From: an uncultured Clostridia bacterium
GTDB taxonomy: Bacteria; Bacillota; Clostridia; TANB77; CAG-508
DNA length: 64,000 nucleotides
Assembly: GCA_934133005.1 (NCBI GenBank)
Contig: CAKPAI010000001.1
Span: 298,769-362,768 of the forward strand
Direction: 5' to 3'
Shown: positions 2,066 to 23,392 of the stretch, piece by piece
Layout: each line of letters starts with the position of its first letter
Position numbering within the stretch: position 1 is the stretch's first letter
Made by a program: the position numbers and the translations under genes
Notes under the pieces: generated by a model
Told to the model about the DNA's origin: nothing
The model's input: the letters and a program-made list of their open reading frames with translations, nothing else
Databases searched by the model: none

Positions 2066-2359
2066 ATGAATAATTTTAGAGAAGTTAATGATAATATTTT
2101 AAGAGATTGGTTAGAATTTAGAGAGGAGACTTTGTGTTGCACTTTAAGTGCTGAGGATAAAAAGCATTTTGTTTATTTTGATGAGATTTCTGGAAAAATT
2201 TTAAAGAATGTTCCAGAACAAAATAAAAAGTATGTCAAGAAACAACTTGATTTGCTTGATGAGAATTTTATGGATTATATTTTCTATTGGAATGAGAAAT
2301 ATTATAGGAATGGTTTTTGTGATGGTGTGCAGCTGATTGGTGGATGTTTTAATAATTAA
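2066..2359 (+). CDS. Hypothetical small protein (97 aa)
   Basis: ORF preceded by GGAGGA RBS (tttggaggatttagattATG). Followed by a 34-bp perfect palindrome. No recognisable domain. Confidence 0.5.
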   Translation: MNNFREVNDNILRDWLEFREETLCCTLSAEDKKHFVYFDEISGKILKNVPEQNKKYVKKQLDLLDENFMDYIFYWNEKYYRNGFCDGVQLIGGCFNN

Positions 2360-2372
2360 TTAAATATCTTTT

Positions 2373-2406
2373 CCAAAGTTTTTTCAAAATTTTGAAAAAA
2401 CTTTGG
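2373..2406. terminator. 34-bp perfect palindrome CCAAAGTTTTTTCAAAA|TTTTGAAAAAACTTTGG (hairpin/terminator or protein-binding site)
   Basis: Reverse complement equals itself over 34 nt. Immediately downstream of the 2066-2359 ORF. T-rich flank. Confidence 0.6.
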
Positions 2407-2461
2407 ATTTTTATGTACTTTTTTCATCTTTTTGAAAAAAGTATCAAAGTAATTGTACAAC

Positions 2462-2487
2462 AAAAGGCGAGTTGATTCTCGCCTTTT
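2462..2487. terminator. GC-rich hairpin AAAAGGCGAGttgattCTCGCCTTTT; bidirectional intrinsic terminator at 3' end of helicase gene
   Basis: 8-bp GC-containing stem with T/A runs on both sides. Overlaps stop of the 2486-5266 minus-strand gene. Confidence 0.6.
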
Positions 2488-5266
2488 ATATTGGATCTAT
2501 TTTTCTTTTAATAAGGATAACATCTTTATTGTCTTCAATATGTTTTATAGTCGATATGATTTTATTTTGGCATTCTGGTGACCAATATATTTTTAATTTT
2601 TCTTTTGCTCTTGTTATTGATGTATAAAAAATGCTATGTGTAATTAGTTCATCTATCTCATTTGTTATTATAACTTTAACAGAATTATATTCCAATCCTT
2701 GTGATTTGTGTATAGAAACAGCATATGCAACTGAAAAAGGTACAATTGTTGTTAAATCTGAATCATCATCCTCGTCAGCGTTTCTATACTTATTAACATA
2801 GAATTTTACAATTGATTTATTATTTTCAGATTCTCCTACCAATTCTAAATCTAAATATTGAATTTCCAATTCATTAATCACTTTATCTATTTCTACTGAA
2901 AACCAAAATCTAAATTCATCCTCTTCTATATCTACGATTCTTCCTTTTAAATTATTATATATTACTGGTGAAAATCTATTAGTATCTCCAAATATAATTG
3001 GATCTCCTACTTTATAAGTACCTAAATCTAGAACTATTGATTTGTTGTTATTGTCACTTTGCAAATAATAATTTATACTATTTATTCCATATAGTCCATC
3101 ATAATTTAGACATAGTATAATTTCATCTTCATCCTGCTTCTTAAATATTTCTTCACCAATTTCTTCTGAAAATTCTTTCTTTACTAACATTTCATCAACT
3201 CTATCATCGCCATTTCTGACCAATTCCCATAAATCTAACAATTCTTGTTTTGTACTTCTCCATGTAAAGTTTAATTCAAATACTGATGTTTGCTTTACTA
3301 ATTTTTTTGATAGTGTAAACCAGTTTCCAAATGTAATAGATTCAATCTGATAAATATCTCCAGCAAGCAATATAGCACTAAAATGTGCTTTTTCTAAAAT
3401 TTGTCTCATATCCGAATTACTAATTATACTACATTCATCAATTATTAAAATGTCGCATTCAGTATCATTATTAGACTCACTAATAAATTTATGTACTGTC
3501 ATAAAATTAGAATTTTGATTCTTTACATTACTCTTTAGATTTTCAACAGCTGAATTTGTATTAGCTAAACATATTTTCTTTTCATTATTATAAAAATATG
3601 TCAAATGTTTAATTAGTGTAGTTTTACCTGTTCCAGCTGCTCCATATATTAAGGCAACTGCACTATTTTCATACATATTTAACAATATATTTTCTTTTTC
3701 TGGACAATTAATCGCGTAAATTCCTTTATTTATAAAACTTTGAAATGATGCTTTATAGCCTTTTATCCCTTTATTTGTCAAGGAATTTAACTTATTAATT
3801 ATATTAATAGTATCATTTTCATATCCATGAATATACAAATTATTATTCTCTATTACCAAGCATCTGTTAGGTTTATGTTTATAATAGATTTTATTATTAT
3901 AAGACTCTACCAATGTTGGAATGTCTCCAAAATTTTTGACTTCATCTATGCTTGTATATAATTTATTATTTTGCTCTGTGTTTTTCTTGACATAACTTGC
4001 CAATAATTCATCATCTCTTCCTTCTATAGGTATTGTCTCTATCAAATCATATCTTGTTGGATTATGATTTATTAATGATGATGCATAAGGCATTTCTTCA
4101 AATGGAATACAACCCCATTGTAAATATAAATCTGATAAAATAGAACAACTATCTGTTGCAAGCTGATTTTTTATGATTCTATTATTGCAATTATATAATA
4201 AGTATCTTAATACAACATTTCCTTTTCTATTATTTTTTATATAATATCTACATTTATCAATTAAGTCTAATATTCCAGTAGTTGTAGAATTATATTTTAT
4301 TTTCTCTTTTGCTTTATCATAATATGTATTATTCATTGTTGCTAAATCTAATAAACTGTATTGTCCTCTTGTTAATAATCTCATAACCTCTAAATATTCT
4401 TTATTATTAGCCTTATAATTTTTATTTATTCCAAAAATTTTATAAAAATTATTTATTTCACATTCTCTTATTGCGACAGACCAATTGTTTATTATATTTA
4501 TTGACATATCTCTTCCAAGAATATTTACTTTTCTTTTAACAATAGATAACTTTATTGAATAATTTGGCATAATATGCATTCTTGTAAATGCTATTATTCT
4601 ATCATACTTATTAACTTTATCTTTAGCTGGTGACAGAGTGACTTCATAATAAATTTTTCCATTAACAAAAAAAGTTTTTATTTTTTGCACATAATATTTA
4701 TCTCCATTGAATTGAGCAGATGTATTAATTGGAACTTGTTTTATTACATCAGCAACTTTTTTATAGTAATCACTAAAAGTACTATCTAAATCAACAGGAA
4801 AATCAGTTATATTATTTAAAATATCTATGTTATAAATTATCTTCATATAATCTTTTAATAATATTAGATATTTATAATATTTAAGCATTAACCTTTCAGC
4901 AGAATCATCATTTTCAACGTAATGTGATCTAGATATTTGTAAATAATAATGAAATCTTTCAATAAATTTTATATTTCCCTTACATTTTATATCATCTAAT
5001 GCTATTCTAACTGTTTTATTATCATAATTAACAGTTTCTGTTTTTCCTGTTAAATATATCTTAACAGCAATATATTCTACAAAAGTTCTTAATGCATTTA
5101 ATAAATTTTGAGATAAAAATCCACGATCATTATCCGAAAATTTATTTATATTTCGTTCAATATTTGAATTAGCTTCCATTATTCTCTTATCTATACTATT
5201 AAAATTATATTTTTCTTCAATTTTTATCATCTTACTTAATCCTTTCTTGTATAATGTAAAAAGCAA
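2486..5266 (-). CDS. Large (926 aa) protein: ~500-aa N-terminal region of unknown function fused to RecD/Pif1-like SF1 helicase (AAA_30 + UvrD_C_2-like)
   Basis: Walker A LIYGAAGTGKTTLIKHL. Walker B ILIIDECSII. C-terminal VSIHKSQGLEYNSVKVII, the characteristic RecD-like UvrD_C_2 motif. N-terminal half has no recognisable motif. Confidence 0.7.
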   Translation of the reverse strand: MLFTLYKKGLSKMIKIEEKYNFNSIDKRIMEANSNIERNINKFSDNDRGFLSQNLLNALRTFVEYIAVKIYLTGKTETVNYDNKTVRIALDDIKCKGNIKFIERFHYYLQISRSHYVENDDSAERLMLKYYKYLILLKDYMKIIYNIDILNNITDFPVDLDSTFSDYYKKVADVIKQVPINTSAQFNGDKYYVQKIKTFFVNGKIYYEVTLSPAKDKVNKYDRIIAFTRMHIMPNYSIKLSIVKRKVNILGRDMSINIINNWSVAIRECEINNFYKIFGINKNYKANNKEYLEVMRLLTRGQYSLLDLATMNNTYYDKAKEKIKYNSTTTGILDLIDKCRYYIKNNRKGNVVLRYLLYNCNNRIIKNQLATDSCSILSDLYLQWGCIPFEEMPYASSLINHNPTRYDLIETIPIEGRDDELLASYVKKNTEQNNKLYTSIDEVKNFGDIPTLVESYNNKIYYKHKPNRCLVIENNNLYIHGYENDTINIINKLNSLTNKGIKGYKASFQSFINKGIYAINCPEKENILLNMYENSAVALIYGAAGTGKTTLIKHLTYFYNNEKKICLANTNSAVENLKSNVKNQNSNFMTVHKFISESNNDTECDILIIDECSIISNSDMRQILEKAHFSAILLAGDIYQIESITFGNWFTLSKKLVKQTSVFELNFTWRSTKQELLDLWELVRNGDDRVDEMLVKKEFSEEIGEEIFKKQDEDEIILCLNYDGLYGINSINYYLQSDNNNKSIVLDLGTYKVGDPIIFGDTNRFSPVIYNNLKGRIVDIEEDEFRFWFSVEIDKVINELEIQYLDLELVGESENNKSIVKFYVNKYRNADEDDDSDLTTIVPFSVAYAVSIHKSQGLEYNSVKVIITNEIDELITHSIFYTSITRAKEKLKIYWSPECQNKIISTIKHIEDNKDVILIKRKIDPI

Positions 5267-5302
5267 AATAATTCTGTAATATAATTACTATTATTTTGCT
5301 TT
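5259..5302. terminator. Hairpin AAAGCAAAATAAT...ATTATTTTGCTTT downstream of fic-like gene
   Basis: 11-bp inverted repeat arms with T-run on minus strand after the stem. Confidence 0.45.
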
Positions 5303-5310
5303 TCTTTAGT

Positions 5311-6246
5311 TTATTTATTTCCAATATAATATTTAATCATTTCTGTGTATTGATCCTGCGCATTTAAACAAGTATCTATTAAATATCCTTTTTCTTTATT
5401 AGTTTGATATTGATTTAGTCCCCTATAATAAAATAGTTTTTCTTTATCTAAAATGATAAATGGTACAATATTATTTTTCAAACATTCTTTAAATGCAATT
5501 ATTCTACCAACTCTACCATTACCATCTTGAAATGGATGTATCTTTTCAAATTTTGCATGAAATTCTATTATTTCATTTATTGTAACTTGTTTCAAAGACT
5601 CATACCATTCTAACAATTTTTTCATATCTCTTTCAACATTTTTAGGATCTGTAGTTTTTAGTCCTCCTACTTCATTAGCTAATTTTTTATAATCTCCCAC
5701 TACAAACCAATCTTTTCTGCTATCTGATGTTCCCTCTTTTAATATTTTGTGAAATTCTTTTATCATCTTTTCAGTTAACTTTTTACTTGCTATATCTAAC
5801 ATATAATCAACTAATTTAAAATGATTAGCCGTTTCTAATACATCATCTAAATCTGTAATAGAATCTTTTTCTGCCAATAAAGTGTTAGTCTCATAAATAT
5901 ATCTAGTCTGATCTTCTGTGAGCTTACTTCCTTCAATATGATTTGTATTATATGCAAATGTAATTTGAGTATTATGATATAGATTTCCTTTTAATTTCAT
6001 ATTTTTTTGTTCTCTTAACACTTCTAAAATATTTATTTTAGATATATCAAAATCATCTTCTTTAATCAATTCATCAACAGAAATTTCAAATATTTCAGCT
6101 AACTTTTTTAATGATTCGATATTAGGTTCTAATGTTCCAGATTCATATTTAGAAACTGTAGCTGGTTTCACTCCTAATGATTCTGCAATTTCAACTTGCG
6201 TCATGTTTTTATTTTCTCTATATAATTTTATTTTTTCTCCTAACAT
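5311..6246 (-). CDS. HTH(XRE)-Fic family protein (Fic/Doc AMPylation-type fold, N-terminal helix-turn-helix)
   Basis: N-term MTQVEIAESLGVKPATVSKYESG (XRE HTH). C-terminal Fic motif IHPFQDGNGRVGR matching HPFx[DE]GNGR. Confidence 0.85.
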   Translation of the reverse strand: MLGEKIKLYRENKNMTQVEIAESLGVKPATVSKYESGTLEPNIESLKKLAEIFEISVDELIKEDDFDISKINILEVLREQKNMKLKGNLYHNTQITFAYNTNHIEGSKLTEDQTRYIYETNTLLAEKDSITDLDDVLETANHFKLVDYMLDIASKKLTEKMIKEFHKILKEGTSDSRKDWFVVGDYKKLANEVGGLKTTDPKNVERDMKKLLEWYESLKQVTINEIIEFHAKFEKIHPFQDGNGRVGRIIAFKECLKNNIVPFIILDKEKLFYYRGLNQYQTNKEKGYLIDTCLNAQDQYTEMIKYYIGNK

Positions 6247-6370
6247 AATAAAAACTCTCCTTTTTGATTATAATAATATTATATCATATCATTTCCAAAA
6301 AAGAAAGTTTTTATTTAATTGTTTTATAATTATTTCTAAAATAGAATCATATATTTTGTTATATACTAAC

Positions 6371-7822
6371 TTAATAAAATAAATTTTCTTTCATTTCAAT
6401 AACCTTTTTATCTATTTCTGAAAAATCATATACAGATGCAAAAATTACTTGATATTCTTTAAAATCACGCTCTAATATCTTTATCATAGCAATAGAAGCA
6501 TTACTTGTTAATTCATTAGTTCGTGGTGAATCAATTATTATAGGTAAATTCAGTCCATATCTATTTTTAATTTCTAATAAATATGCAATCTTAAAAGAAA
6601 ATGACATATGTGTCAAAATTCTTCCTGTTTTGCCTTTTAATTTATTTGTTAATACAAATTTAGAACTATCGCCAATATACTCATCAAATTTTAATTCTTT
6701 GGCATATTTTTTTATAGTATTATAAATTGAATTCAAATACATGTTATTTTCTGATAATATATTATGCAATTCATTCATCAATTTTTGTTTTCTTCTTGTT
6801 AATTGCCCAATTATTTTATCCATTTGTTTTTCATTAATATTGACATCTTTTAGCATCTCATCAACTTCTTCAGCAACAGTTTTTACATTAAATAAAATAT
6901 TTCTATCATTTAGCTCATCTTCAATTTTATTTATTTCGTTTTTAATTTTACCTAAATTTATTTCTAATTCTTTTTTTCTTGTTTCATAGAAAATCTGATT
7001 TTCATTATAATTTAATATATTATCTTTAGCTAGTTTAACGGAATTATCATTAGAAATTTTTACATATATATCTAACTTTTCAAGGTAGTCAACTAATTTT
7101 TTATTATCTTTTAAAATGCCACTAACATCTTTAATATCATTTTTTATTTCAGCCTCTCTTATTTTAAGTAATTTTAATTGACTATATAACTCGTTATCAT
7201 CATTCTTGGTATATGATGTAACTTCTTCAATAATATTTTCACTTTTATATTCCGCAATACTTTTTAGTGATCTATATTTTCGTATTTCATCTTCTATCTT
7301 TTTTATTTCATTATTAATTGAAGAAACATCTTTATCGGATAATGCAGAAATAAAATCTTCTATATTAAATCTGTTTTTTCCTATAATTATTCCTCTATTT
7401 AGAAGAGTCCATCCTTTTTCTTGGTCAATATAAAAAATAGCTAATAAATTATTTAGAATCATAATTTCACTTATGTTAAAAATTTTAGAATGTAGCTCAT
7501 ATAATTGTTCAGGTACTATATAAGTTATTTTCTCATTTTTTTCATTCAAAATAACAATATCTCCTTTTCGTTCAAGTGAATATTGTTGTTCATTTTCTAT
7601 TATATCTATATGTATAAAAAAATCATCAAAAGTCTTTATTCCATCTGTTGCAGGTATGTTATATCCTAGTCCGAATAGTATTGCTCTTAGCAAAGTTGTT
7701 TTTCCTTTTGAATTTTCTTTACTATAAATCAAATTAATCTTATCATCAAAAACAAACTCTCTATATTCATCTTTCCTTTGAATAATAACTTTTCTAATTT
7801 TCATATTTGTTAGCCCTTTCAA
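6371..7822 (-). CDS. lmuB: SMC/ABC-like coiled-coil ATPase; candidate Lamassu LmuB (DUF3732-like)
   Basis: Walker A SKGKTTLLRAILFGLG near N-terminus. ~300 aa of K/E/I/N-rich coiled-coil. C-terminal signature-like KGKTGRILTHMS and Walker B LPIIIDSP. Probable true ATG start at ~7804 (MKIRKV...), 5 nt after upstream stop. Confidence 0.5.
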   Translation of the reverse strand: MKGLTNMKIRKVIIQRKDEYREFVFDDKINLIYSKENSKGKTTLLRAILFGLGYNIPATDGIKTFDDFFIHIDIIENEQQYSLERKGDIVILNEKNEKITYIVPEQLYELHSKIFNISEIMILNNLLAIFYIDQEKGWTLLNRGIIIGKNRFNIEDFISALSDKDVSSINNEIKKIEDEIRKYRSLKSIAEYKSENIIEEVTSYTKNDDNELYSQLKLLKIREAEIKNDIKDVSGILKDNKKLVDYLEKLDIYVKISNDNSVKLAKDNILNYNENQIFYETRKKELEINLGKIKNEINKIEDELNDRNILFNVKTVAEEVDEMLKDVNINEKQMDKIIGQLTRRKQKLMNELHNILSENNMYLNSIYNTIKKYAKELKFDEYIGDSSKFVLTNKLKGKTGRILTHMSFSFKIAYLLEIKNRYGLNLPIIIDSPRTNELTSNASIAMIKILERDFKEYQVIFASVYDFSEIDKKVIEMKENLFY

Positions 7823-8819
7823 ACATTTGCATTATATTTCCTTTTCTTATGAATATTTTTTTTGCAATAATTTTTGAGCAAGCTTTCTCTATAGTTTCCA
7901 TATTGCTATCTTTATTATTTTTAAAAACTATATCGTATATTTCGTTTTCATATTTAATAACAAACTGATTGCTTCTTATTTCTTTATCTTCGATTTTAGC
8001 TTTCATTATTAAATTGCTAATCTTATTATATACATCAAAGTCAGCTTCTTTATAGTTTATTATCCTATCATACGTATCTAATGCTTCAAAAAAAGTTTCT
8101 TCTTCAATTTCCATACTTTCGTCAAACTTTATTGAGTTTCCATCGCCTAATTTTAAGATTAAAAGTCTCCACAAAACATCTTCCTTTTTAAATTTTAATT
8201 TCATATTATTTTGAGTTGCATTATGTAGTGCTTCTGACTCTAACATTTGTAGGAATCTATTTTTATATGGTAGTAAATCCGAACTGATAAAAGTTAAAAA
8301 GTCTTCAATTTTGGCAATTATATATTTCTGTTTTGTTTCTTTATCTTCACCAAAAAAAGGGACTTTAGCAATTATTAATTTATCCCTATTTATGTTCTTT
8401 TGTAATTGATTAAGTTGAATATCAATTTTTTCTTTTGAAGCTAAAGATAATTCATTATATTTGAAAAATGATACTAATTCAAATTCATTTGTTCCAGAGT
8501 TTAATGGGTTCGGTTCTAAATTACTTATATATATTAGGCTTTCTGAATCATTATCATTAACATCTGATAATGATTCCAAAGCCTTTCTTAATTTTGTTGA
8601 ATATGAACTCGTATCACCATCATTAATATTTTGTTTTGATTTTGCTTGTGCATAAATTTTTTTACTATTATTTAATGAAATTTCAATATCTTCCTTTTCT
8701 CCTTCTATCTTCATTTCTTTAAATTTTCCAAAATATTTTATCATTAAATATATAGCTATATTAATTTGAAATTGCCATCCAAAAGCACTTGCACTTGCAT
8801 TTCTATTTATAGCTTTCAT
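7794..8819 (-). CDS. lmuA: PD-(D/E)xK-type nuclease-like protein; candidate Lamassu LmuA (DUF4297/Cap4-nuclease-like N-terminus)
   Basis: N-terminal ASAFGWQFQINIAIYLMIKYF followed by IEGEKEDIEISLNN...YAQAKS, a G-aromatic-x-aromatic-Q then E-x-E-D then Q-x-K pattern. Directly upstream of and operonic with the SMC-like ATPase. Confidence 0.45.
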   Translation of the reverse strand: MKAINRNASASAFGWQFQINIAIYLMIKYFGKFKEMKIEGEKEDIEISLNNSKKIYAQAKSKQNINDGDTSSYSTKLRKALESLSDVNDNDSESLIYISNLEPNPLNSGTNEFELVSFFKYNELSLASKEKIDIQLNQLQKNINRDKLIIAKVPFFGEDKETKQKYIIAKIEDFLTFISSDLLPYKNRFLQMLESEALHNATQNNMKLKFKKEDVLWRLLILKLGDGNSIKFDESMEIEEETFFEALDTYDRIINYKEADFDVYNKISNLIMKAKIEDKEIRSNQFVIKYENEIYDIVFKNNKDSNMETIEKACSKIIAKKIFIRKGNIMQMFERANKYEN

Positions 8820-8904
8820 TTATATTACCTTCTACTCATAAAAATTTAAATTTGGCAAAATTTTAGTAATTTTAATTATTTTTATTATAAGTCAATTTTT
8901 AAAT

Positions 8905-9924
8905 TTATTCTTCCACTTCAATTACAGGTATAAATAATTTCTTTAATTTTATGGTATCTTTAAATTTCTCTGACATATCATCATAGTATTTTAAAATTAA
9001 ATCTACTAATTCACTTCCATTAATAGATTTTATTATTGGATGCTTTTCTAAATATATTTTAGCATTTTTTGCATAATCTGATAAAGTTACAAATAAACCA
9101 TAATCTCCTTCGTCCATAGTTCCTTTTAATGATTGTACTGTAGATTCTGTGATATTTCCATCTTGGCTTTTTACTTGTACAATAATTCTTGGTGGCAATT
9201 CATCTTTATATGCAATAATGTCTTTTCCATTATCTCCTCCGTGAGGACTAATTTTTGTTCTATATCCCATTGCATTTAATAAATCTGCGACAACATCCTC
9301 CAATTCATATCCTTTAAAATTTTTATTTAACTCTTTTAATACATAATCTTTGGTACTTTCTAATATAGTCTCTGAAGTCGCAAATACATTATCGTCATTT
9401 TCTTGATTATTTTTTACCTTCTTTCCATTGTGAAGAGCATTTATAAATTCATCTGCATAATGCCTTACTTGAAAAAATGATAAAAATGATCCTATTTCAT
9501 ATAATGCACCTTGCGAAAATTCTTCTCTTGGTAATTTTTTTAACCATTTTACTTTTCTCTTTTGATTATATTCTGTTTCTCTACTATCAAAGAAATATTC
9601 CCCTTCAATTTGTCCAATATTAATCATTCTATTAAATTTTGTTGGATATATCACATAATCTCCTATTTTAGCTTCATTAACAAATCTAAATAGTTGTCCT
9701 GCAGAACCTGCTATAGATTGTTTAGATTTGTTTGGATAAACTTTATCATAGGCCTTATAATAAGATTCTCTATCTGTATCTATTGTGGATAAATCTCCCA
9801 TTTCATGCCAACCTATAGCTATGACTTCATCTTGTAATAATAAATTTTCATTATTCGTATTATGAATTCCCCAAACTATTATTTCCTCACTCATTATTTT
9901 TCCTTTTATGTTATATTTAATCAC
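8905..9924 (-). CDS. mrr: Type IV (modification-dependent) restriction endonuclease Mrr (Mrr_N winged-helix + Mrr_cat PD-(D/E)xK)
   Basis: Catalytic-domain motif ISPHGGDNGKDIIAYKDELPPRIIVQVKSQ, matching GxDxGxD ... VQxK of Mrr_cat. N-terminal ~110 aa resembles Mrr_N. Confidence 0.8.
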   Translation of the reverse strand: MIKYNIKGKIMSEEIIVWGIHNTNNENLLLQDEVIAIGWHEMGDLSTIDTDRESYYKAYDKVYPNKSKQSIAGSAGQLFRFVNEAKIGDYVIYPTKFNRMINIGQIEGEYFFDSRETEYNQKRKVKWLKKLPREEFSQGALYEIGSFLSFFQVRHYADEFINALHNGKKVKNNQENDDNVFATSETILESTKDYVLKELNKNFKGYELEDVVADLLNAMGYRTKISPHGGDNGKDIIAYKDELPPRIIVQVKSQDGNITESTVQSLKGTMDEGDYGLFVTLSDYAKNAKIYLEKHPIIKSINGSELVDLILKYYDDMSEKFKDTIKLKKLFIPVIEVEE

Positions 9925-10070
9925 TTAAATATGACATATTCTCCTTTTATTCTACTTTTTATATTATTTTAACCTATATTTCTTATTAATGTTTTATTAT
10001 ACTTGAAACTTCTTTGTATTTATACTTTAGCTTGCTCATTTTATATATTTGTTCAACTTAAATTTTTCTC

Positions 10071-13000
10071 CTATTTTATTCTAGAATCAATATATTTCCA
10101 TTCGTCATCTGTTATATTCCATTTTTCACAAAGATACTTATCTGTATAAATCCTATCGTACTTTCCTAAATCAGGTACAAAACAAAATTTATTTCTTAAT
10201 ACATCTTGTGAAACAACAGCTTGTAAAAGTAAAAATCTTATTGTTTTAGTAAATAAATATGATTTAAAATTTTTAACTTCTTCTTCTGTATCAAAAGCTC
10301 CTGCTACAATAAATGATTCTGTACAACATTCACCTGGTTTAGCAATATTCGTATTACCATCATAATAAAATCCAACTGGTTTAGTGAAATCTGTTTGTCC
10401 AGCAATTGGAGATCTAGGAACCAGTAATTTCCATTTATTTAATAATTTATTTTCATCATGTATATCTTTTAAATCGGCATATCTCTTTCCAATCTTTTGT
10501 ATAAACCAGCAAGGAACCCCTTTATCTTTAGGTTTATAATTCGTTGGTAGTCCAAAAGGTTTTTGTGGGGATACCACATTTTCTAGTGTTTTACCATTTT
10601 CTTGTACATTAAAGACTTTCCTAATAATTGGAATAGCTTGGTTAAATCTCACAAATGTATTAAATTCATTTAAATTTCTTGATGAAGAATATTTAACATT
10701 GTTTATAACATTAGTAACTTCACATTCTGTTTTATTATTTTTATCCCATAAGAAATAATTAACACCACCTGCAATATCAGCTGAATCAAAAACATCTCTA
10801 GTATTAGGATAATCAATAATTTTTGTTAAGCATGTATCATTTAGCATATCTTTTCTAAACTCATTCAATCCCATACCTCCAGAAAACCATCTCGATGGAG
10901 TAATCATGCTTATATATTTAGAATCTATTGATTTTGACATATTTATAAACAAATTATATATTGGTTTAGCCTGTGTACCATATCCACCAGTAATTTCTTG
11001 ATATGGAGGGTTTCCAACCACTGCATCGAATTTCATTTGCACTCCTTCCTTATTCCAACTATTAGCATTTAATACATAATTAGTAACTGCTGTTATATTT
11101 TCATCTAATTTAGTTGCAACATCTTCTATTAGTAAAGTATTTACATTATATTCTTTATAACCTGCTAATGTTCTTTTTACAATTTGCATTGCCATTTTAG
11201 TTTTACAAATTATAAAAATATTATTTTCTAATGTTTCTCTCCAAAAATCTTCATTTTTTTCTTCCGTGTAATCTTGCTTATTATAATTTAACAGTCTGTT
11301 CATGTATATACTATAAGAACAATACAAAGCATATAAACCTGTTTTTGAATTTATTTCTAATATTTTAACCTCATTATTCTCAAATAAATCCTTGGTAACA
11401 TTTCCTTGGTTTATAAATCTTGGTTCTTTATCTGGATAATTAAAATTATATCCTCCAATACAGTCTCCTAAATGCATATTTACTGTTTTCCAAGGTGTAA
11501 GTACAGTTTCTTTATCTGGATTTCTAAACATTGAGAATATTTCAGCTAGCTTTTGTATTCTTTCTTTTATAGGCAATGTGTCTGCATATAATGTTGAATT
11601 TCTAATTTGTCTTCCAGCTTCAATAAATATTTCATTATCATAATATTTAGAGAACTTTTTAAATACATCTTTTGTAACGCCATTAGGCATAAATTCATTC
11701 CATGATTTATCATCTACTAATTCAATAAAATTTTGGCTGTCAATATCTTTATTTATTTCAATATCTGCTCCATATATTAGTAATGGTATTCTTATTGATA
11801 TTCCTCTCAATATCGACATTGCTGTTGAAGCTTGTTTTTTCTTTTCTTTTTCTTCTTCAAGTAGTCTTTTTTCTTCTTCAGTTAGCTCTCTCTTAGGTTT
11901 CTTTTTGGCTTCTTCTAATTTCTCATATTCTTCATTATTAAATCCCTGATTGTTAATATCAATACTATCAATTCTTTTTGTTTGTTTACTAACTCCAACT
12001 ATTTTCTTTAAATCATCAAACTCTTTCAAATCTATTTCATCCATTTTTAGTAGATTATCATTATAAATATTTTTATCATCAAATCCATTGGTTACAACTC
12101 TTTGAGCTACTGCTTTTTTTAATTCTCTTAACATTTGAGTAACATCATATTTAATCATTTTAGAACCATCAATTCCAATAATTGGGCAAAAATTTAGAAA
12201 ATGGCTCATAATTTCTTGTGATTGAACTGAACCTGGTCTTACTGATAATTGACCTGCCTGTGCGGCCATTTTTAATGTTCTATCTGGAGCAAAATCAAAC
12301 ACATAACATTTCTCTTTAACTTTGCCTCCAATTTTAGCTGGTGTTTGAACTCTAAATATTGTTTGTAAATAACTAGAAGCCGATGTGGAATATGAGCCAG
12401 AAAGCATGAAAACAGCTGTCCATTCTGGTACACTAACTCCTGTAGTTAATCTTCCACATGAAATTGTAATAGTATTAGTTTCTTCTGGCTTATCTGTTAT
12501 TGCTGTTCTTACCTTCTTTAGAGCTTCTTCATATTTTTCTTCTTCATCACCATTTCCTGCTACATTAACAATCTGAAACATTCCAGATCCAAATACTTCA
12601 TGTTCTTTTAATAATTTACTTAAAGCTTTAGCCTCTTTAACTCCTGGTACCATCCATAATGAATGCCTAAAATATTCAATATACTCTTTAGTTGAATATG
12701 GATAATTAGAATTCTCGTCCTGCTTAGACAATAAATTTAAAAACCTATTTATATCATCTTTATGTACAAAATCTCCTTTTTCATATCCTTTTGGAATAGG
12801 TTTTCGATCAATCTCTAATTCTCCTGTCCAAGTTCTAAAAAATTCTCTAAAGTTAAATGCATTATCCGATACATCCACATATCTAGGCATCAATTTATCT
12901 AAATAATATGTATAAATATTAAGTTGTGGCAAATCGCTATACGGATTAGAATCTCCAAAATGTTCTATATCTGCATCCCATTCTAATTTAGCTGATTGTT

Positions 13001-14012
13001 CCATAATGTAATCCCATGTATAAATTTCATCTTCTTTAAAATCACTTAGTAAATTAAATGGTGTTCCAGATAACATCAATACTTTAGTTTTATAATCATC
13101 ATGTATCTTTACGACACCATCGATTGTCTTTTCTCCTAAACTTGTTCTTGTTCCTTCATGTGCCTCATCAATTACAACTAAGTCCCAGTTATTATTGAAA
13201 ATTAGTTCATCTTTATCAAAATTACCACCTACTTCTGATGATCCTCTTAAATCTTGAATAGAAGCAAAATATACAAATGGTTTATCGCTATCAATTAAAC
13301 TTTCTATATTTTCTCCAAAAGTTTTAGAACCATATTTATAATCACTATCTTTTGAAAATATTTTATTAAAGTCTTCAAACCATCCATTATTTACGACTGG
13401 TCTATGCGTAATTATTATTGTTTTTTTATACTTCTGCCTTCTTACTATTTCTAATGCAGTTAATGTTTTACCAAAACGCATTTTAGCATTCCAAAGCATA
13501 ATATCACTTTTTTTAAAATTTTCAATCGTTTTCTTTATTGCTTCTTCCTGTTCAGGTCTAAATACAATTGGATCCCTATCATAAGAGATCTCTTTTGCAG
13601 TTAACGCTTGTCTATTGTCTTTAACAGCCTTAATAGCTTGCTTAGCAGTTTCCAAATCCACAACAAACCATTCGTTTTGTTTATTCTCTGTATCAAAATA
13701 ATATCTTTCTAATCCGGACCTTAATAAAACATTATGAACTTTTGTATCTTTAAATGAATTACCGTTATTGTCAACTGCTAATTCTGTATATAATAATTCA
13801 TATTTTATACCAGCTGTTGATGTATAACTATTAATCCTATTTTTAGCGGCCTCATTTAATTCTTCAGAATTTGGTTGCAATTCTAACAAAGATTTATTTG
13901 TATGAACTGTAGCCTCTCCTATTTTCAATTTTCCACTATGAAATTCATCATTAATTCTAAAAATATAAATCAACTTATAGCTAAATGTCGACGTAAATTT
14001 ATTTGTTTCCAT
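10071..14012 (-). CDS. 1313-aa three-domain fusion: T5orf172/GIY-YIG-like N-terminal domain + SF2 (ResIII/DEAD-like) helicase + gamma-class N6-adenine DNA methyltransferase; Type ISP/IIG-like single-polypeptide RM candidate
   Basis: N-term YKLIYIFRINDEFHSGKLKIGEAT...NEWFVV (GIY..KIG.T..EWF pattern). Helicase motif I MRFGKTLTALE, II LVVIDEAHEG, III VLMLSGTPFN, VI QTIFRVQTP. MTase motif X TVLTPWKTVNM, motif I ILEINSKTGLYALY, motif IV AVVGNPPYQE. ~300 aa follow NPPY and could be the TRD. Confidence 0.7.
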   Translation of the reverse strand: METNKFTSTFSYKLIYIFRINDEFHSGKLKIGEATVHTNKSLLELQPNSEELNEAAKNRINSYTSTAGIKYELLYTELAVDNNGNSFKDTKVHNVLLRSGLERYYFDTENKQNEWFVVDLETAKQAIKAVKDNRQALTAKEISYDRDPIVFRPEQEEAIKKTIENFKKSDIMLWNAKMRFGKTLTALEIVRRQKYKKTIIITHRPVVNNGWFEDFNKIFSKDSDYKYGSKTFGENIESLIDSDKPFVYFASIQDLRGSSEVGGNFDKDELIFNNNWDLVVIDEAHEGTRTSLGEKTIDGVVKIHDDYKTKVLMLSGTPFNLLSDFKEDEIYTWDYIMEQSAKLEWDADIEHFGDSNPYSDLPQLNIYTYYLDKLMPRYVDVSDNAFNFREFFRTWTGELEIDRKPIPKGYEKGDFVHKDDINRFLNLLSKQDENSNYPYSTKEYIEYFRHSLWMVPGVKEAKALSKLLKEHEVFGSGMFQIVNVAGNGDEEEKYEEALKKVRTAITDKPEETNTITISCGRLTTGVSVPEWTAVFMLSGSYSTSASSYLQTIFRVQTPAKIGGKVKEKCYVFDFAPDRTLKMAAQAGQLSVRPGSVQSQEIMSHFLNFCPIIGIDGSKMIKYDVTQMLRELKKAVAQRVVTNGFDDKNIYNDNLLKMDEIDLKEFDDLKKIVGVSKQTKRIDSIDINNQGFNNEEYEKLEEAKKKPKRELTEEEKRLLEEEKEKKKQASTAMSILRGISIRIPLLIYGADIEINKDIDSQNFIELVDDKSWNEFMPNGVTKDVFKKFSKYYDNEIFIEAGRQIRNSTLYADTLPIKERIQKLAEIFSMFRNPDKETVLTPWKTVNMHLGDCIGGYNFNYPDKEPRFINQGNVTKDLFENNEVKILEINSKTGLYALYCSYSIYMNRLLNYNKQDYTEEKNEDFWRETLENNIFIICKTKMAMQIVKRTLAGYKEYNVNTLLIEDVATKLDENITAVTNYVLNANSWNKEGVQMKFDAVVGNPPYQEITGGYGTQAKPIYNLFINMSKSIDSKYISMITPSRWFSGGMGLNEFRKDMLNDTCLTKIIDYPNTRDVFDSADIAGGVNYFLWDKNNKTECEVTNVINNVKYSSSRNLNEFNTFVRFNQAIPIIRKVFNVQENGKTLENVVSPQKPFGLPTNYKPKDKGVPCWFIQKIGKRYADLKDIHDENKLLNKWKLLVPRSPIAGQTDFTKPVGFYYDGNTNIAKPGECCTESFIVAGAFDTEEEVKNFKSYLFTKTIRFLLLQAVVSQDVLRNKFCFVPDLGKYDRIYTDKYLCEKWNITDDEWKYIDSRIK

Positions 14013-14991
14013 TTTTTCTACTCCTATTTAATAATGTAGTATATTTTATTGGTCTATTAGTTTCCCAATTCATTATTTTACAATAAATTCCATTATGTTT
14101 TTTATAATTATTTTTTTCACAGCCTATACAACTTATTTTTTGTGGCACATCTCCAAATAATGACATATTAATTACTTCATCTGTTTTGCAACTATATGGA
14201 ACTACAAATTTTGTGCCGTCCATTTGCCACACATTCCAAGAAATAATTTTCGCAATCTCTATAATATCTTCAATAAGTGGTTTTTCTTTAAATTTGTATA
14301 AATAATTATCTATAAATGTATACAACAAATTTTCTCTTGCAATCAACAAATTATCTCCTTGAAATTCAAAACCATAAGTATTTTTATATGCTTTCTGTAC
14401 CCAATCCATCCATTCTAACTTATCATTTACATTTTCATTTATAACTCTTAATTTTCTATCTAATAATCCTATCCTATTATTTACTTCTATAATATCACCT
14501 GAAACATTATCATATCTACTTACCAAATATGGTGCTTCTCCACAGGATACTTCCAATCTAGTATTGTAAACATAATCTTGCCATGTTTTATTCGTTTTAG
14601 TTGGAAAATTTATTTTTTCCTTATTTGAAATCCAACTTTTATCACTCTCAATATTAAAAAAACTATCTTCCCCTGACCAAGCATTATCTATTAAATTATT
14701 TTGTGAATTACAAATCCAAGATGGAGTAAAAACTTCAGCCTTATCTCTTATTCTCTTTTCTTGTTCTTTTTTACTTTTCTTTACTCTAGGTTTAATTACA
14801 TTTCCATTATAGCCTGTAATATTTTCAATTTTTATATTATCTTTAACTCCAAATCCTATACCTTTATCTCTATAATTATCAGTAGCCCAAATAATATTGT
14901 TATTTGTCGTATGATCTTTAAGAAGGATATGTAATAATTCATAATTTGTTTTTAGCAATATATTTTCCTGTATATCTGCACTATTTTCCAT
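13999..14991 (-). CDS. Hypothetical 330-aa protein translationally coupled (start/stop overlap) to the helicase-MTase fusion; Cys-rich C-terminus
   Basis: Its stop overlaps the ATG of the downstream 1313-aa gene. Contains AEVFTPSWICN but no MTase motif I/IV. C-terminal CIGCEKNNYKKHNGIYCKIMNW cluster. Function unassigned. Confidence 0.5.
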   Translation of the reverse strand: MENSADIQENILLKTNYELLHILLKDHTTNNNIIWATDNYRDKGIGFGVKDNIKIENITGYNGNVIKPRVKKSKKEQEKRIRDKAEVFTPSWICNSQNNLIDNAWSGEDSFFNIESDKSWISNKEKINFPTKTNKTWQDYVYNTRLEVSCGEAPYLVSRYDNVSGDIIEVNNRIGLLDRKLRVINENVNDKLEWMDWVQKAYKNTYGFEFQGDNLLIARENLLYTFIDNYLYKFKEKPLIEDIIEIAKIISWNVWQMDGTKFVVPYSCKTDEVINMSLFGDVPQKISCIGCEKNNYKKHNGIYCKIMNWETNRPIKYTTLLNRSRKNGNK

Positions 14992-15094
14992 ATTTTCCTC
15001 CCTTCAAATCAGTATAAACATTCTATACTATTTTATATCACAAATTATTCTTTTTCTCAATATAATTCTTGATATTTCTCTCTATTATATATCT

Positions 15095-15718
15095 TTAATT
15101 TCTTCCAAAAAAATGATCATAAGGATAACTAGCTTTAATATATTTTTCAGTTAATTCCATCTTATACTTTTCTAACAATTCCAAATATTTTTGTTTAAAA
15201 ACATTTTTACAAATCCACTCAACACCTTTACTAGAAATAATAACCTTGCCATCAACTAAAAATTTATATTGCTCAAATCCATTATCACACATTTTTTTAA
15301 CTGCTTTTCTAACAGTAATATCTCTTCTATCAAAATACTCACATAGTTGTTTTATTTTCATATCTTCATTCCACCAATTTTTATTATGTTCTACTTTTAA
15401 TAATTCTTCATATTGTCTAATTCTATCTTCAAAAAAATCCACATCAGCATCTATTAAAGATTTTTCTTTTTGAAAATACACTTGAGTTAACCATACATAT
15501 CCTTCTGCTAAAATAAAATATTTCCTACTTTTTACTTTCTCACTCCTCCATCTGCAAGTTGGATGTTTTTTTAGCATAACTTCTATAGCTTTTCTTAAAT
15601 CTTTATGTGTTATTTCTTTTCCATATTTAGTAGTAACACCTAGTAATTGAAATCTCTTTAAGATTTTATTATATGATAAGAAAATACTATCTAAAACTTG
15701 CTCTGAATCCATTTTCAT
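15095..15718 (-). CDS. Phage-related regulatory/DNA-binding protein (possible antirepressor / KilA-C-like); low-confidence family call
   Basis: 207 aa, W/K-rich, sits immediately upstream of phage-type replication genes. No catalytic motifs. Call is by context and general resemblance only. Confidence 0.3.
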   Translation of the reverse strand: MKMDSEQVLDSIFLSYNKILKRFQLLGVTTKYGKEITHKDLRKAIEVMLKKHPTCRWRSEKVKSRKYFILAEGYVWLTQVYFQKEKSLIDADVDFFEDRIRQYEELLKVEHNKNWWNEDMKIKQLCEYFDRRDITVRKAVKKMCDNGFEQYKFLVDGKVIISSKGVEWICKNVFKQKYLELLEKYKMELTEKYIKASYPYDHFFGRN

Positions 15719-16032: not shown

Positions 16033-16887
16033 TTAGCATTTAGTTTTATCGCTTTTGCTAGCTTTTTCTTTTTCATTTATATCATTTTTTATGAGTGAAA
16101 TTCCATAACACATTTTGTATAAAATTTGTATGAATTCTTCTGCTAATTTCCTATTTTCAATAGCAATTTTCTCCAACAATTCTTCTCTTGTATATCTAGT
16201 TGTAATTACTATTGGTAACTCGTTTTCATATCTATTGTTAATAATTCTATACAACTTTTCTAAAGCCCATTTAGTTATTGTTTCACTCCCAAAATCATCG
16301 ATAATTAACATATCAACATTAGAATAAAGTTCCATAATTTCTGACTCTGTCGTAACAGTTTTATTAAAAGATTCTTTTATTCTATCTGTTATAGATCTAG
16401 TCCTTTCCAATAATGCAATTTTTTTATTTCTAATAATCTCATTAGCAATACTTGCTGCTAAATGAGTGTTTTCATATCCTATACTTCCATATATAATAAT
16501 TCCATCTTTAACTTTATTTTCTATACATAAATGTGTATATTTCATTAATGTTGTTATTGTTTCTTGGTTATCTTTAAATCTATCAAAATTTAAAAAATTA
16601 CAATATTTTAATTTCTTTTTTATACAACCATCCTTATATATTTTATTTATAATTTCTCTATACTTTCTTTGTTTTTCTTTTTCATTTTGCTTTGAATCAT
16701 ATTGTTTCCAAAATGCAATTGCTTCACTACAATCACACCTTTCATATTCTACCATATCGTGATTAACATTTGCATAAAGATAACTTAATCCTAATGGCTT
16801 TAATTTTTTATTGCAAAATCCACATTTTGCACCTTCATTGGTGATAACTTTAAAATTCACATTTTCTAAATCCACTTCTATTCTCAT
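16033..16887 (-). CDS. DnaC/IstB-like AAA+ helicase loader with N-terminal Zn-finger (phage replication protein)
   Basis: Walker B-like MLIIDDFGSE. LPIVITTRYTREEL (DnaC box). N-terminal CGFCNKK...CDCSE cysteine pairs. Confidence 0.65.
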   Translation of the reverse strand: MRIEVDLENVNFKVITNEGAKCGFCNKKLKPLGLSYLYANVNHDMVEYERCDCSEAIAFWKQYDSKQNEKEKQRKYREIINKIYKDGCIKKKLKYCNFLNFDRFKDNQETITTLMKYTHLCIENKVKDGIIIYGSIGYENTHLAASIANEIIRNKKIALLERTRSITDRIKESFNKTVTTESEIMELYSNVDMLIIDDFGSETITKWALEKLYRIINNRYENELPIVITTRYTREELLEKIAIENRKLAEEFIQILYKMCYGISLIKNDINEKEKASKSDKTKC

Positions 16888-17359
16888 CTCCTTCTTTAGC
16901 TAATATATTTTTAATCTTATTTTCTTCTTGTGTGTTATCCAACGTTATTGTAACGTTACTTTCTTCTTTTTCACTTTTCAACTTTTCACGATATTTTTGT
17001 TGTCTAATTCTATTTTGTTCTTTATATTTTTCATATGGCTCAATGCTTTGATACTTGTCCCAATTTTTAATTTTATATGCTTCATCTTCTACAATTAGCA
17101 TATTTAATTCTAGAAATTTTTGAATAATTTTTTCGATTTTTTTCTTAGATTTTCCCATAATCTTTGAAAAATTTTCTATTGTCATTGGTTTATTATTGCC
17201 TATTACTAATTTTCCATTTCTATTGCATTCTACAGCAATAATTAATAATTGAATCCATACTCTAAAATATGTATCTCCATCTGGTTCTCTTAACAGTATT
17301 TGAATTTTCCTATTTGAAAATATTTTTAATTCTATTTTCAACCATTGTAAACTATACAT
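16850..17359 (-). CDS. Phage replisome organizer N-terminal domain protein (DnaD-like)
   Basis: MYSLQWLKIELKIFSNRKIQILLREPDGDTYFRVWIQLLIIAVECNRNGKLV matches the conserved WIKL..IF...KI..L...P.GD...WI.LL.A..N..G.L pattern of phage_rep_org_N. Confidence 0.7.
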   Translation of the reverse strand: MYSLQWLKIELKIFSNRKIQILLREPDGDTYFRVWIQLLIIAVECNRNGKLVIGNNKPMTIENFSKIMGKSKKKIEKIIQKFLELNMLIVEDEAYKIKNWDKYQSIEPYEKYKEQNRIRQQKYREKLKSEKEESNVTITLDNTQEENKIKNILAKEGDENRSGFRKCEF

Positions 17360-17387
17360 ATCCTCCTTTCCTCGCTTTCTTTGTAAT

Positions 17388-17633
17388 CTAACTTATAGAT
17401 TTTTGTTCCATATTTTTTAAATATTCATCTAGCGCTTGTACTCTAAATAAATACTTTCCACCAACTTTAGAGCATGGTATTTGCTTTCTTCTTACTAATT
17501 GATTTATCAACCAGTAAGATACACCTAAATACTCTGCTGCTTCTTTCATTGTTAGTGTCGTCCTTTGAATTTTTGGTAATTCCATAATATCACCTCCTGT
17601 TTTTTGAAATTTAGTATTGACTTTTGTTAACAT
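17388..17633 (-). CDS. xis: Excisionase-family helix-turn-helix DNA-binding protein (Xis/MerR-like); probable true start ~17585 (MELPKIQ...)
   Basis: LTMKEAAEYLGVSYWLINQLVRRKQIPCSKVGGKYLFRVQALDEYL is a typical excisionase-family HTH. Strong RBS caggaggtgatattATG before internal Met. Confidence 0.65.
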   Translation of the reverse strand: MLTKVNTKFQKTGGDIMELPKIQRTTLTMKEAAEYLGVSYWLINQLVRRKQIPCSKVGGKYLFRVQALDEYLKNMEQKSIS

Positions 17634-17733
17634 TTGTATTATATTGTCAATAGTTAACTTTGTAAATACTTTTGGGTTTATTTTGATAGCAGGTTAACTT
17701 TAAGTGAATTTATAAACTGTTAACGGAGGAATT
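17586..17733. promoter_or_regulatory. Divergent promoter/operator region with four GTTAAC palindromes (approx. 17625, 17653, 17692, 17718) and a TTGACT -35
   Basis: Four copies of GTTAAC (three as TTGTTAAC/GGTTAAC/AGTTAAC + CTTT) within ~100 bp between divergently transcribed xis-like gene and 17734 gene. Same motif recurs twice in the int promoter. Confidence 0.5.
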
Positions 17734-18783
17734 ATGAATAAAATAAAATATGATGAACCTATAAATATCTTTGTTTCAACAAATGAAGAATTTACCCATA
17801 AGGCATTTTTATGCGGAAAAACAAAATCATCAAAACCTAAGTATTATGATTTAAAAGATGGAGATACTGGCTATTTTACTATTGATACTATAACTAACAC
17901 ACAACCACTTTGTAGCGAACTCATCTCTTTCTTAAATTGTGATTTTGATAATATTGATGAATGTTTTATGTGGTTTACTAAGTTTTTCACTTCATACATA
18001 ATATATACTGGAGAAGAAGATATAAATAAGTTTGAAATTAATAAATTTTATTCTTTTAGTAAAGTAAAAAATTTATTTAAAAAATATTATGAAGAAATAA
18101 AAAAAGACTCAAAACATGGTCAAAAACTATTATCAAAATTTGTTGATTATATATTTAACCTTGATAACATTAAAGAAATAAATGACTTTAGTACAAAAAT
18201 AAGATTTTATATTTATTATAATTCTCATTTTAAGGAACTTGATAGATTTATAAATAATCATTTTTCTATGCCACAAGGCTTTTCTTTTAGAACTATTTCT
18301 GATATTAAAGGAAATACAGAAAAAGATTTAATAAAATTCTTTAAGTCTAAATCCTCTTATGAAATTGAACCAAATTATAGCACTAGTAACGAAAACATTT
18401 ATGAAATTTTATATGTTACATTGTTTCAATTCGTACTTAATAATAAATATCTTATCAAGAAATGTAAAAATTGTGGTAAATACTTTATAACAGATAATCC
18501 ACGTATTAATTACTGTAATAATTTATACAAAGAAAAACAAACTTGTAGAGATATCGGAAACCAAATTGCTCAAAGAGTTAAGCAAGAAAATGAGATTGTT
18601 TATGGTAAATATCGTAAGATTTATGCAAAAAAAGCAATGTTAGTAAAACGTAATCCTGATATAGAAGTTTATAAGATTGATTATGAAAATTGGAAAAAAG
18701 AAGCTAAAGAATTTATGGATGCCATTAGATCTGAGGAGAAAACTTATAAAGAATTTGATGAGTGGTTGGAAGAAAACAAATAA
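17734..18783 (+). CDS. Hypothetical protein with C-terminal CxNCxxYF...YCN...TC[RK]D[IV]G zinc-finger-like domain; paralog of 27455-28774
   Basis: C-terminal KKCKNCGKYFITDNPRINYCNN...KQTCRDIGNQ aligns with ECENCHQYFIPVNRKDEIYCNR...EKTCKDVGAM of the element-2 protein. Both are transcribed divergently from an excisionase-like HTH gene. Confidence 0.55.
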   Translation: MNKIKYDEPINIFVSTNEEFTHKAFLCGKTKSSKPKYYDLKDGDTGYFTIDTITNTQPLCSELISFLNCDFDNIDECFMWFTKFFTSYIIYTGEEDINKFEINKFYSFSKVKNLFKKYYEEIKKDSKHGQKLLSKFVDYIFNLDNIKEINDFSTKIRFYIYYNSHFKELDRFINNHFSMPQGFSFRTISDIKGNTEKDLIKFFKSKSSYEIEPNYSTSNENIYEILYVTLFQFVLNNKYLIKKCKNCGKYFITDNPRINYCNNLYKEKQTCRDIGNQIAQRVKQENEIVYGKYRKIYAKKAMLVKRNPDIEVYKIDYENWKKEAKEFMDAIRSEEKTYKEFDEWLEENK

Positions 18784-18809
18784 AGGAAAAGTTTATTGCT
18801 TTTCCTTAT

Positions 18810-19712: not shown

Positions 19713-19733
19713 CTTATATTTTCTCGCTTTCTT

Positions 19734-23299: not shown

Positions 23300-23392
23300 T
23301 GACATAAGAATGCCATTTTCAATCATTATTGCAACCAATTTAAAGGCATAAAAAAATACCCACAGTCATTGAAACTGTAAGTATTTATAATT

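Follow-up and report, generated by a model that had tools for sequence, protein, structure and literature searches.

What kind of protein is the large helicase encoded beside a helix-turn-helix (HTH)-Fic gene in an uncultured human-gut Clostridia bacterium, and what makes up its N-terminal half? The gene lies on a stretch of 64,000 nucleotides (contig CAKPAI010000001.1 of assembly GCA_934133005.1, positions 298,769 to 362,768), called the window below. A preliminary description had read it as a RecD-like helicase with an N-terminal domain that might be a new sensor or nuclease module, and had likened it to the immunity factors of the Nhi/Hna type. Our analysis places the protein in a catalogued candidate family, PDC-S53, with an intact motor of superfamily 1B (SF1B) in its C-terminal part and, according to structure models, a HEPN-like bundle, an OB fold and winged-helix/alpha-beta modules in front of it, with no recognisable nuclease fold. 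We give a little more than even weight to the reading that it is a stand-alone, horizontally mobile SF1B helicase of the PDC-S53 family and a candidate defence gene at the edge of an island. What goes beyond an intact SF1B motor fused to HEPN-like, OB and winged-helix modules in defence islands, we infer. The gene and its predicted parts are as follows (residue numbers follow the 914-amino-acid form unless the 926-amino-acid form is named).

2486..5230, minus strand: helicase gene, 914 amino acids (aa) from the probable ATG at 5230; member of PDC-S53 and PHROG 325
4736..5203, minus strand: HEPN-like helical bundle, residues ~10-165 (predicted)
4475..4699, minus strand: OB fold, a five-stranded beta module like those of single-stranded DNA (ssDNA)-binding proteins, residues ~178-252 (predicted)
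3674..4465, minus strand: helical, winged-helix-like and small alpha/beta modules with a helical linker into the motor, residues ~256-519 (predicted)
2486..3673, minus strand: SF1B RecD/Dda/Pif1-type helicase core, residues 520-914
3620..3643, minus strand: Walker A GAAGTGKT, from residue 530, with K536

The open reading frame taken mechanically (2486..5266, minus strand) does give the 926 aa first described when it is read from a TTG at 5266. The true start is almost certainly the ATG at 5230, since an AAGGA ribosome-binding site stands 9 nucleotides upstream of it, close homologues begin with MIKIEEKYNF, and independent gene callers give exactly the 914-aa product on metagenome contigs. The helicase in the C-terminal half had been recognised correctly: Walker A GAAGTGKT (530), Walker B LIIDE (595), motif III GDIYQ (624), SIHKSQGLE (839, containing the HKSQG string noted before) and TSITRA (870) are intact, so motifs I, II, III, V and VI are all present, and by its sequence the protein carries a complete SF1B RecD/Dda-type ATP-driven motor in residues 520-914. 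Using Pfam, we found AAA_30 at 534-689 and UvrD_C_2 at 847-892 (926-aa numbering), together with Viral_helicase1 and AAA_19; only helicase domains are matched, in the C-terminal ~400 aa, and no family before about residue 520, which bears out the earlier observation that some 500 N-terminal residues have no recognisable motif. Among PDB sequences the motor matches RecD (1w36_D), RecD2 (3e1s) and Pif1. The NCBIfam models TIGR01447 and TIGR01448 match only ~471-906, i.e. the C-terminal half of the protein, and the RecD/RecD2 equivalog cut-offs are missed (TIGR01447, 111 vs 310; TIGR01448, 105 vs 500; NF008127, 53 vs 671). The protein thus resembles the SF1B 5'-to-3' helicases RecD, RecD2 and Dda in its motor domain, whereas its N-terminal 470 aa have no counterpart in them and its gene is accessory and outside a recBCD context.

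Searches of Pfam, NCBIfam, PHROGs and PDB sequences returned nothing N-terminal of about residue 470 except full-length PADLOC/PHROG family models, and it is these that identify the protein. PDC-S53 of PADLOC-DB v2.0.0 (PDLC05035, 900 positions) matches it end to end (E=0, 1160.7 bits; residues 24-923 in 926-aa numbering against model positions 3-894), and PHROG 325 ('Dda-like helicase') matches over the full length with 222 bits. The window helicase is therefore an ordinary member of PDC-S53, and nothing sets it apart from the other single-gene, ~900-aa proteins of PDC-S53 and PHROG 325. The N-terminal region is accordingly not new as first thought, the whole 900-aa architecture having been modelled already. 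The family itself is a computational candidate for phage defence only, and for annotation the practical consequence is small: 'PDC-S53-family candidate defence helicase' is the fitting label for the gene, rather than RecD or nuclease-helicase. What is new here is the domain dissection, the result that no nuclease is recognisable, the association with restriction-modification (R-M) operons, the lineage-restricted link to Fic and a phage-borne three-gene variant.

The family is large. A search with residues 1-520 alone returned at least 1450 clusters at 90% identity and at least 794 at 50% identity (294 of the latter at E<=1e-30), nearly all of them ~900 aa long and with the same helicase C-terminus. 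Members show 36-47% identity to the window protein and are spread patchily over at least nine phyla, including Bacillota, Bacteroidota, several proteobacterial classes, Patescibacteria, Actinomycetota, Spirochaetota, Synergistota, Fusobacteriota and Planctomycetota. Conservation per alignment column runs at 0.55-0.79 in the N-terminal half, near the 0.66-0.91 of the motor; the N-terminal 520 residues are permanently fused to the motor and about as conserved as it is. PDC-S53 is in this sense a large cross-phylum family that keeps its N-terminal half as strongly as its motor and has apparently never been dissected. The full architecture is rare in phages (2 of 50,697 records) and plasmids (6 of 72,556), and was confirmed at no fewer than 17 loci in viral contigs. 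We also observed variants of 1101 aa (L103:2845-6147, L105:4437-7745 and L106:1409-4714) in which the PDC-S53 match begins at residue 202, after an extra N-terminal extension of about 200 residues; for the extension no relative of solved structure was found, nor any relationship to the partner protein of the phage clade described below.

What, then, does the conserved N-terminal half contain? AlphaFold2 models were built from a 52-sequence alignment (pLDDT 86.4 and pTM 0.80 for residues 1-520; pLDDT 92.0 for residues 171-520). In these models residues ~178-252 form a five-stranded beta-barrel of the SSB/RPA/PriB type, and the preceding bundle has the four-helix up-and-down topology of HEPN proteins, a likeness at the level of fold. 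The best structural matches of the bundle are MNT-HEPN toxins (8xdj, 5yep, 7ae2 and 8yuf), the top one, 8xdj, being an AMPylated HEPN toxin. Foldseek against the PDB gave no match at E<=0.001; its best local matches were OB folds and one HEPN toxin at a TM-score of 0.50. For residues ~256-519 the fold searches gave no specific fold assignment, and MCM N-terminal domains, which bear a zinc site, were among the structural matches of these middle modules. Five conserved residues lie within them, the near-invariant C257, C362, C374, H389 and H452 (residues ~256-456; 3860..4465, minus strand), which could constitute a metal-binding site.

The models bear directly on the suggestion that the N-terminal region hides a diverged nuclease degrading the phage DNA that the helicase unwinds. 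Such a protein would share with the window gene a general layout (one large polypeptide with a C-terminal SF1 helicase and a long N-terminus, encoded in a defence island), and residues 256-470, where no confident fold was obtained and where D, E, H and C residues are conserved, would be the place for it. A nuclease of the PD-(D/E)xK or any other type in residues 256-470 was rejected, there being neither a structural nor a sequence match; across residues 1-520, no nuclease fold (PD-(D/E)xK, HNH, PLD or other) was seen in two models and three fold searches, no nuclease matched in Pfam, NCBIfam or PDB sequences, and no Nhi or Hna model matched in PADLOC at E<=0.01. For Nhi this last result means that no family of that name was matched, the presence of an Nhi model in the library being unconfirmed. 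One clade of the family moreover supplies in trans a protein whose N-terminus is effector-like (LmuA-like), which suggests a helicase without such a module of its own. We disfavour the hidden nuclease and consider it very improbable, the structure prediction once proposed as a check having returned HEPN-like, OB and winged-helix-like modules instead.

Nhi (nuclease-helicase immunity, Staphylococcus) targets intermediates of phage replication and has a link to the phage single-stranded DNA-binding protein (SSB). In Hna (helicase-nuclease, Sinorhizobium) the domains come in the reverse order to that of the window protein, and the helicase is of the SF2 type. The kinship with them proposed at first holds in part. 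Like both, the window protein is a single polypeptide built around a helicase, its gene is a stand-alone, mobile gene of defence islands, and the SSB link of Nhi accords with the OB-fold/ssDNA theme of its predicted N-terminal half; unlike both, it has no detectable nuclease domain, so the nuclease-helicase layout does not carry over.

Whether the bundle is HEPN in ancestry as well as in predicted fold is less plain. Within the first 120 residues the near-invariant polar positions are R36-G-x-L-S40-Q41-N42, R48, E52, H94, Q98, S102-H103-Y104-T105, E112-R113 and K117-Y118. R48 is present in 135 of 143 diverse representatives. At position 53, where the canonical HEPN histidine would stand, H is found in 50 of the 143, A in 25 and Y in 21 (the others include S and G), and the window protein has Y. 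Alternative strings of the form R/K-x4-5-H/Y are [K/R]88-x5-H94 and R113-x4-Y118. At the sequence level, a 32-sequence profile of residues 1-172 gave no HEPN or other meaningful match in PDB sequences or Pfam, a Pfam scan of the 32 members singly (E<=1) gave no HEPN family, and hhalign of the residues 1-172 profile against the HEPN-clan Hypoth_Ymh protein of a related locus gave a probability of 0.1. The HEPN assignment is thus a fold-level call only, made on the models. We hold that the bundle probably has true HEPN ancestry; canonical ribonuclease (RNase) activity in the window protein is doubtful, and much less probable than that ancestry. In some HEPN families the R or the H is missing, or the histidine is placed elsewhere (PMC3710099).

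The closest described arrangement is that of the several independent fusions of HEPN to SF-I helicases in R-M loci, for which a PrrC-like back-up RNase role has been proposed (Anantharaman et al. 2013, PMC3710099). These share with PDC-S53 the N-terminal HEPN-like bundle, the SF1 helicase and winged HTH modules, and are likewise frequently found within or at the 3' end of type I R-M operons. They differ in that the window family shows no Pfam HEPN sequence relationship, has a partly conserved Rx4-6H, lacks restriction endonuclease, Vsr and transglutaminase domains, and has a predicted OB fold. The PDC-S53 family is not named in PMC3710099.

The genomic surroundings were examined in 80 genome loci, 17 viral contigs, two phage genomes and plasmid hits. 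No universal partner of the family was found: in about 90 loci the genes at the -1 and +1 positions are almost all singletons, the exception being one phage-borne clade. The -1 gene is co-oriented and within 120 bp in 47 of 83 informative loci, and its identity is nearly always locus-specific. Among the 80 genome loci the recurrent neighbours are HsdM (12), HsdR (10), large serine recombinases (9) and several DNA methyltransferases, and the helicase often lies at the 3' end of a type I R-M operon. A bulk scan of 136 flanking proteins adds type I S subunits, LmuB, AriA, Shedu SduA_C and Mrr, as well as YgjP, AbiEii-like ATPases and IS110 transposases. Among the genes packed tightly against the helicase are those for Hypoth_Ymh (HEPN clan), T5orf172/DUF4357, an OLD-type ATPase-TOPRIM protein, an AAA_13 ATPase, HsdS, an SLFN-g3 helicase, RhuM and DUF5677. 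Such neighbours typify R-M 'hitch-hiker' defence genes and make the setting the opposite of a syntenic core context; neither such a context nor a well-known non-defence domain at the N-terminus, either of which would have spoken against a defence role, was seen. One family member (L083, 5164..7950) occupies a quarter of a 10,659-bp mobilisable Lactiplantibacillus (L.) plantarum plasmid (NZ_CP137848.1), flanked by rep/DUF536 and, on the other side, by a 502-aa ATP-binding protein and a Phd/YafQ toxin-antitoxin pair.

If PDC-S53 is a true defence family, its members would be helicase-centred immune factors without an obvious nuclease, and one would have to ask by what means a motor joined to OB, winged-helix and HEPN-like modules halts an invader. 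In the scheme that we propose, an invading phage or plasmid would be engaged at its single-stranded or forked DNA, where the OB and winged-helix modules would load the protein; the motor would translocate 5' to 3' and either disrupt intermediates of replication or recombination or read them out. The effector or regulatory site would be the HEPN-like bundle, in which R48, H103, Y104, R113, K117 and Y118 form an invariant cluster; it would perhaps be an RNase-type 'back-up' effector following the PrrC logic put forward for R-M-linked HEPN-helicase fusions (PMC3710099). As the canonical histidine is not conserved, sensing or dimerisation without catalysis is another possible role of the bundle. 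No partner would be obligatory for the helicase. The family's role can be tested by a few point mutants, guided by the domain map and the near-invariant residues listed above.

Several points weigh against this proposal of a stand-alone defence helicase. The string R48-[N/T]-[L/F]-V-E52-x53 fits the canonical R-N-x-x-x-H in only about 35% of the 143 representatives; with the Rx4H histidine confined to that share, and Y in its place in the window protein, RNase activity is doubtful. The defence-island context is guilt by association. We found no paper that mentions PDC-S53; the literature on RecD-like anti-phage helicases and Nhi yielded nothing describing the family, and the PDC candidates assayed in PMC12881386 do not include it. 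Finally, the PHROGs label 'Dda-like helicase' and the replication-gene neighbours in prophages and a small plasmid make a role in DNA metabolism possible.

That role can be stated as an alternative in its own right, in which the protein would be a Dda/RecD2-like helicase for replication, recombination or repair of its carrier element, with no part in immunity and with the OB and winged-helix modules as mere DNA-binding accessories. Besides the annotation of PHROG 325, it can draw on the phages phi1605 and TPDSL_ph1, in which the gene has primase, polymerase, SSB and exonuclease modules for neighbours, on the 10.7-kb L. plantarum plasmid, in which it follows rep/DUF536, and on the window island itself, which has its own replisome organiser and DnaC-like loader. 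In both phages, however, the helicase is opposite in strand to the replication genes and stands beside R-M genes, in the manner of a moron, and in the window it is 11 kb from the island's replication genes. Most of the 80 loci have no adjoining replication module and show type I R-M 3' ends or defence genes instead; the family is rare in phages, viral contigs and plasmids; and the near-invariant polar cluster in the bundle is left unexplained by an accessory role in DNA binding. We consider this alternative unlikely.

The phage-borne clade shows that a partnered form exists. In phi1605, TPDSL_ph1 and 10 of the 17 viral contigs listed, a conserved protein of ~278 aa is encoded 7-57 bp before the helicase, and in at least seven of the viral contigs a small HTH_26 gene follows the helicase, giving a cassette in the order ~278-aa partner, helicase, HTH_26 regulator. 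The cassette was observed at L001:6161-10024, L002:6155-10022, and L092-L099, L102 and L107 (~3900-8000 of each locus), and the partnered helicases form one clade in a neighbour-joining tree. The first ~140 residues of the partner match the PADLOC model of LmuA, the Lamassu effector, with E 1e-12 to 1e-17; the partner belongs to no Pfam family, lacks a relative of solved structure and does not resemble the PDC-M46A protein of the window, and a hidden Markov model built from it found no relatives in the other loci. The helicase can thus act with a separate effector-like protein, and a separate LmuA-like partner accords with a helicase that has no nuclease of its own. The possibility that the partner is a Fic protein was tested and ruled out, and diverged relatives of it were sought at the -1 slot elsewhere and in the N-terminal extension of the 1101-aa variants, and found in neither.

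In the window the -1 position is held by the HTH-Fic gene, whose features are listed below.

5311..6246, minus strand: HTH-Fic gene, 311 aa, PADLOC PDC-S04
6061..6246, minus strand: XRE-type HTH (Pfam HTH_3), residues 6-60
5494..5778, minus strand: Fic domain, residues 157-251 (Pfam, E 3.6e-18)
5503..5538, minus strand: Fic catalytic motif HPFQDGNGRVGR, from residue 237, an intact HxFx(D/E)GNGRxxR
5929..5946, minus strand: auto-inhibitory motif TNHIEG, from residue 101, the (S/T)xxxE(G/N) inhibitory helix

The adjacent gene had accordingly been identified correctly, as HTH_3 plus a Fic domain with an intact catalytic motif. In PADLOC it matches PDC-S04 with 357 bits and SoFic more weakly (E 2e-24). 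It shares the intact HxFx(D/E)GNGRxxR motif with SoFic/PDC-S04 but, unlike SoFic, has an N-terminal XRE-type HTH, and it is not SoFic proper, since NCBIfam NF046030 gives 34.4 bits against a cut-off of 550. The gene is co-oriented with the helicase and lies 80 bp upstream of it, and no terminator was found between the two.

As seen across the family, this adjacency is narrow. A Fic-domain neighbour occurs in 3 of the ~100 loci examined (the window, L003 and L057), whose helicases are ~91% identical; the link therefore does not extend to the family level, and the adjacency is not conserved in diverged members. Other apparent 'Fic' neighbours were discarded, only their HTH part being matched. 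The more distant relatives have other -1 genes: a 354-aa protein of no assigned family in L004 (60% identity) and Ymh in L028 (48%). DNA identity to L057 (90%) spans exactly 2462-6347, i.e. Fic plus helicase, and resumes only at 15095-15944. Between these blocks (6347..15095, compared with L057:1164-5946 of Clostridium sp. CAG:575) the cargo is wholly different up to a conserved 207-aa gene, and the region looks like a cargo-swapping hotspot. We also observed that four human-gut metagenome contigs with identical genes (L085, L086, L089 and L090; 174-326 kb) end inside or beside the Fic-helicase locus, which suggests strain-level structural variation that breaks assemblies there.

Do Fic and helicase nevertheless form one functional unit in the window lineage? 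Two versions of such a two-gene system can be conceived. In one, invading DNA would be sensed by the helicase, which would free the Fic AMPylase from auto-inhibition to act as effector; in the other, Fic would AMPylate a conserved tyrosine of the HEPN-like domain and silence the helicase, as MntA does HepT. The co-orientation, the 80-bp gap free of a terminator and the shared terminator after the helicase are in keeping with a unit, as is the DNA identity to L057 and L003, which covers exactly the Fic+helicase(+97-aa) block while the flanking cargo differs. The Fic protein, with an intact catalytic motif and an inhibitory helix, looks as a regulated effector would, and the -1 slot of the phage-borne clade, holding a tightly coupled effector-like partner, indicates that partnered versions exist. 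With MntA-HepT there is further common ground: HepT, which is controlled by AMPylation of a tyrosine beside Rx4H, is of the kind that gives the bundle's best structural match (the AMPylated toxin 8xdj), an AMPylase adjoins, and Y104 and Y118 are near-invariant. The likeness has its bounds, as an MNT gene is missing, the similarity extends to the fold only, the Fic gene is lineage-specific and the bundle is fused to a helicase. Furthermore, the three Fic-bearing loci are all ~90% identical, and shared ancestry alone explains their adjacency; L004 and L028 carry unrelated -1 genes; PADLOC models PDC-S53 and PDC-S04 both as independent single-gene candidates; and Y104 and Y118 are conserved in many members without a Fic neighbour. 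A two-gene system is on this evidence decidedly unlikely. The pairing may be functional in the window lineage, and the data fit the shared descent of one cassette equally; most likely, the HTH-Fic gene is a separate candidate defence/toxin gene (PDC-S04) riding the same cassette as the stand-alone helicase.

An improbable extension is a previously undescribed regulated pair, in which Fic would take the MNT role and AMPylate Y104 or Y118 of the HEPN-like domain, gating the helicase. More broadly, PDC-S53 would be a sensor/motor chassis whose -1 slot takes interchangeable effectors or regulators (Fic here, an LmuA-like protein in the phage clade). The phage-borne three-gene variant and the lineage-specific Fic pairing point to where partnered versions may be sought.

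The rest of the window agrees with the placement of the helicase at an island edge, as had been noted. Just past it come the housekeeping genes Hsp20, CBAH, HAD and GatC/GatA, and in the opposite direction defence and mobility genes extend out to at least 27 kb; as the housekeeping genes start just past it, the helicase marks the edge of an integrated defence island ~25 kb long. Other features of the island and of the helicase's downstream side are as follows.

6371..8819, minus strand: PDC-M46B (483-aa LmuB-like SMC-type ATPase) and PDC-M46A (341 aa, no Pfam family), an overlapping pair found with PADLOC
8905..14012, minus strand: Mrr_cat protein with an N-terminal DUF8426-type domain (PDC-S02, 408 bits), then a ResIII-Eco57I fusion
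16033..27308: rest of the island, with a DnaC/IstB-like ATPase, a phage replisome organiser and an SMODS+AGS_C cyclase with SLATT_4
21824..23017, plus strand: tyrosine integrase
2372..2407: perfect 16-bp hairpin followed by a T-run, just past the helicase
2066..2359, plus strand: convergent 97-aa gene, accompanying the helicase in the window, L003, L057 and L028

The PDC-M46B/A pair directly upstream of Fic is a Lamassu-like candidate system, and is missing from the otherwise syntenic relative L057. The 1313-aa fusion joins a ResIII helicase to an Eco57I-type methylase (type IIG/ISP-like), with a weak N-terminal match to T5orf172. Farther on (within 16033..27308), SLATT_4 is a two-transmembrane effector paired with the SMODS+AGS_C cyclase, and a KAP-family NTPase of 1242 aa is also encoded. 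No tRNA gene was found in positions 1-30000 of the window.

The hairpin at 2372..2407 is probably a bidirectional terminator common to the helicase and the convergent 97-aa gene. The latter has no match in Pfam, PADLOC or PHROG, and is kept even in L028, where the helicase is merely 48% identical to that of the window.

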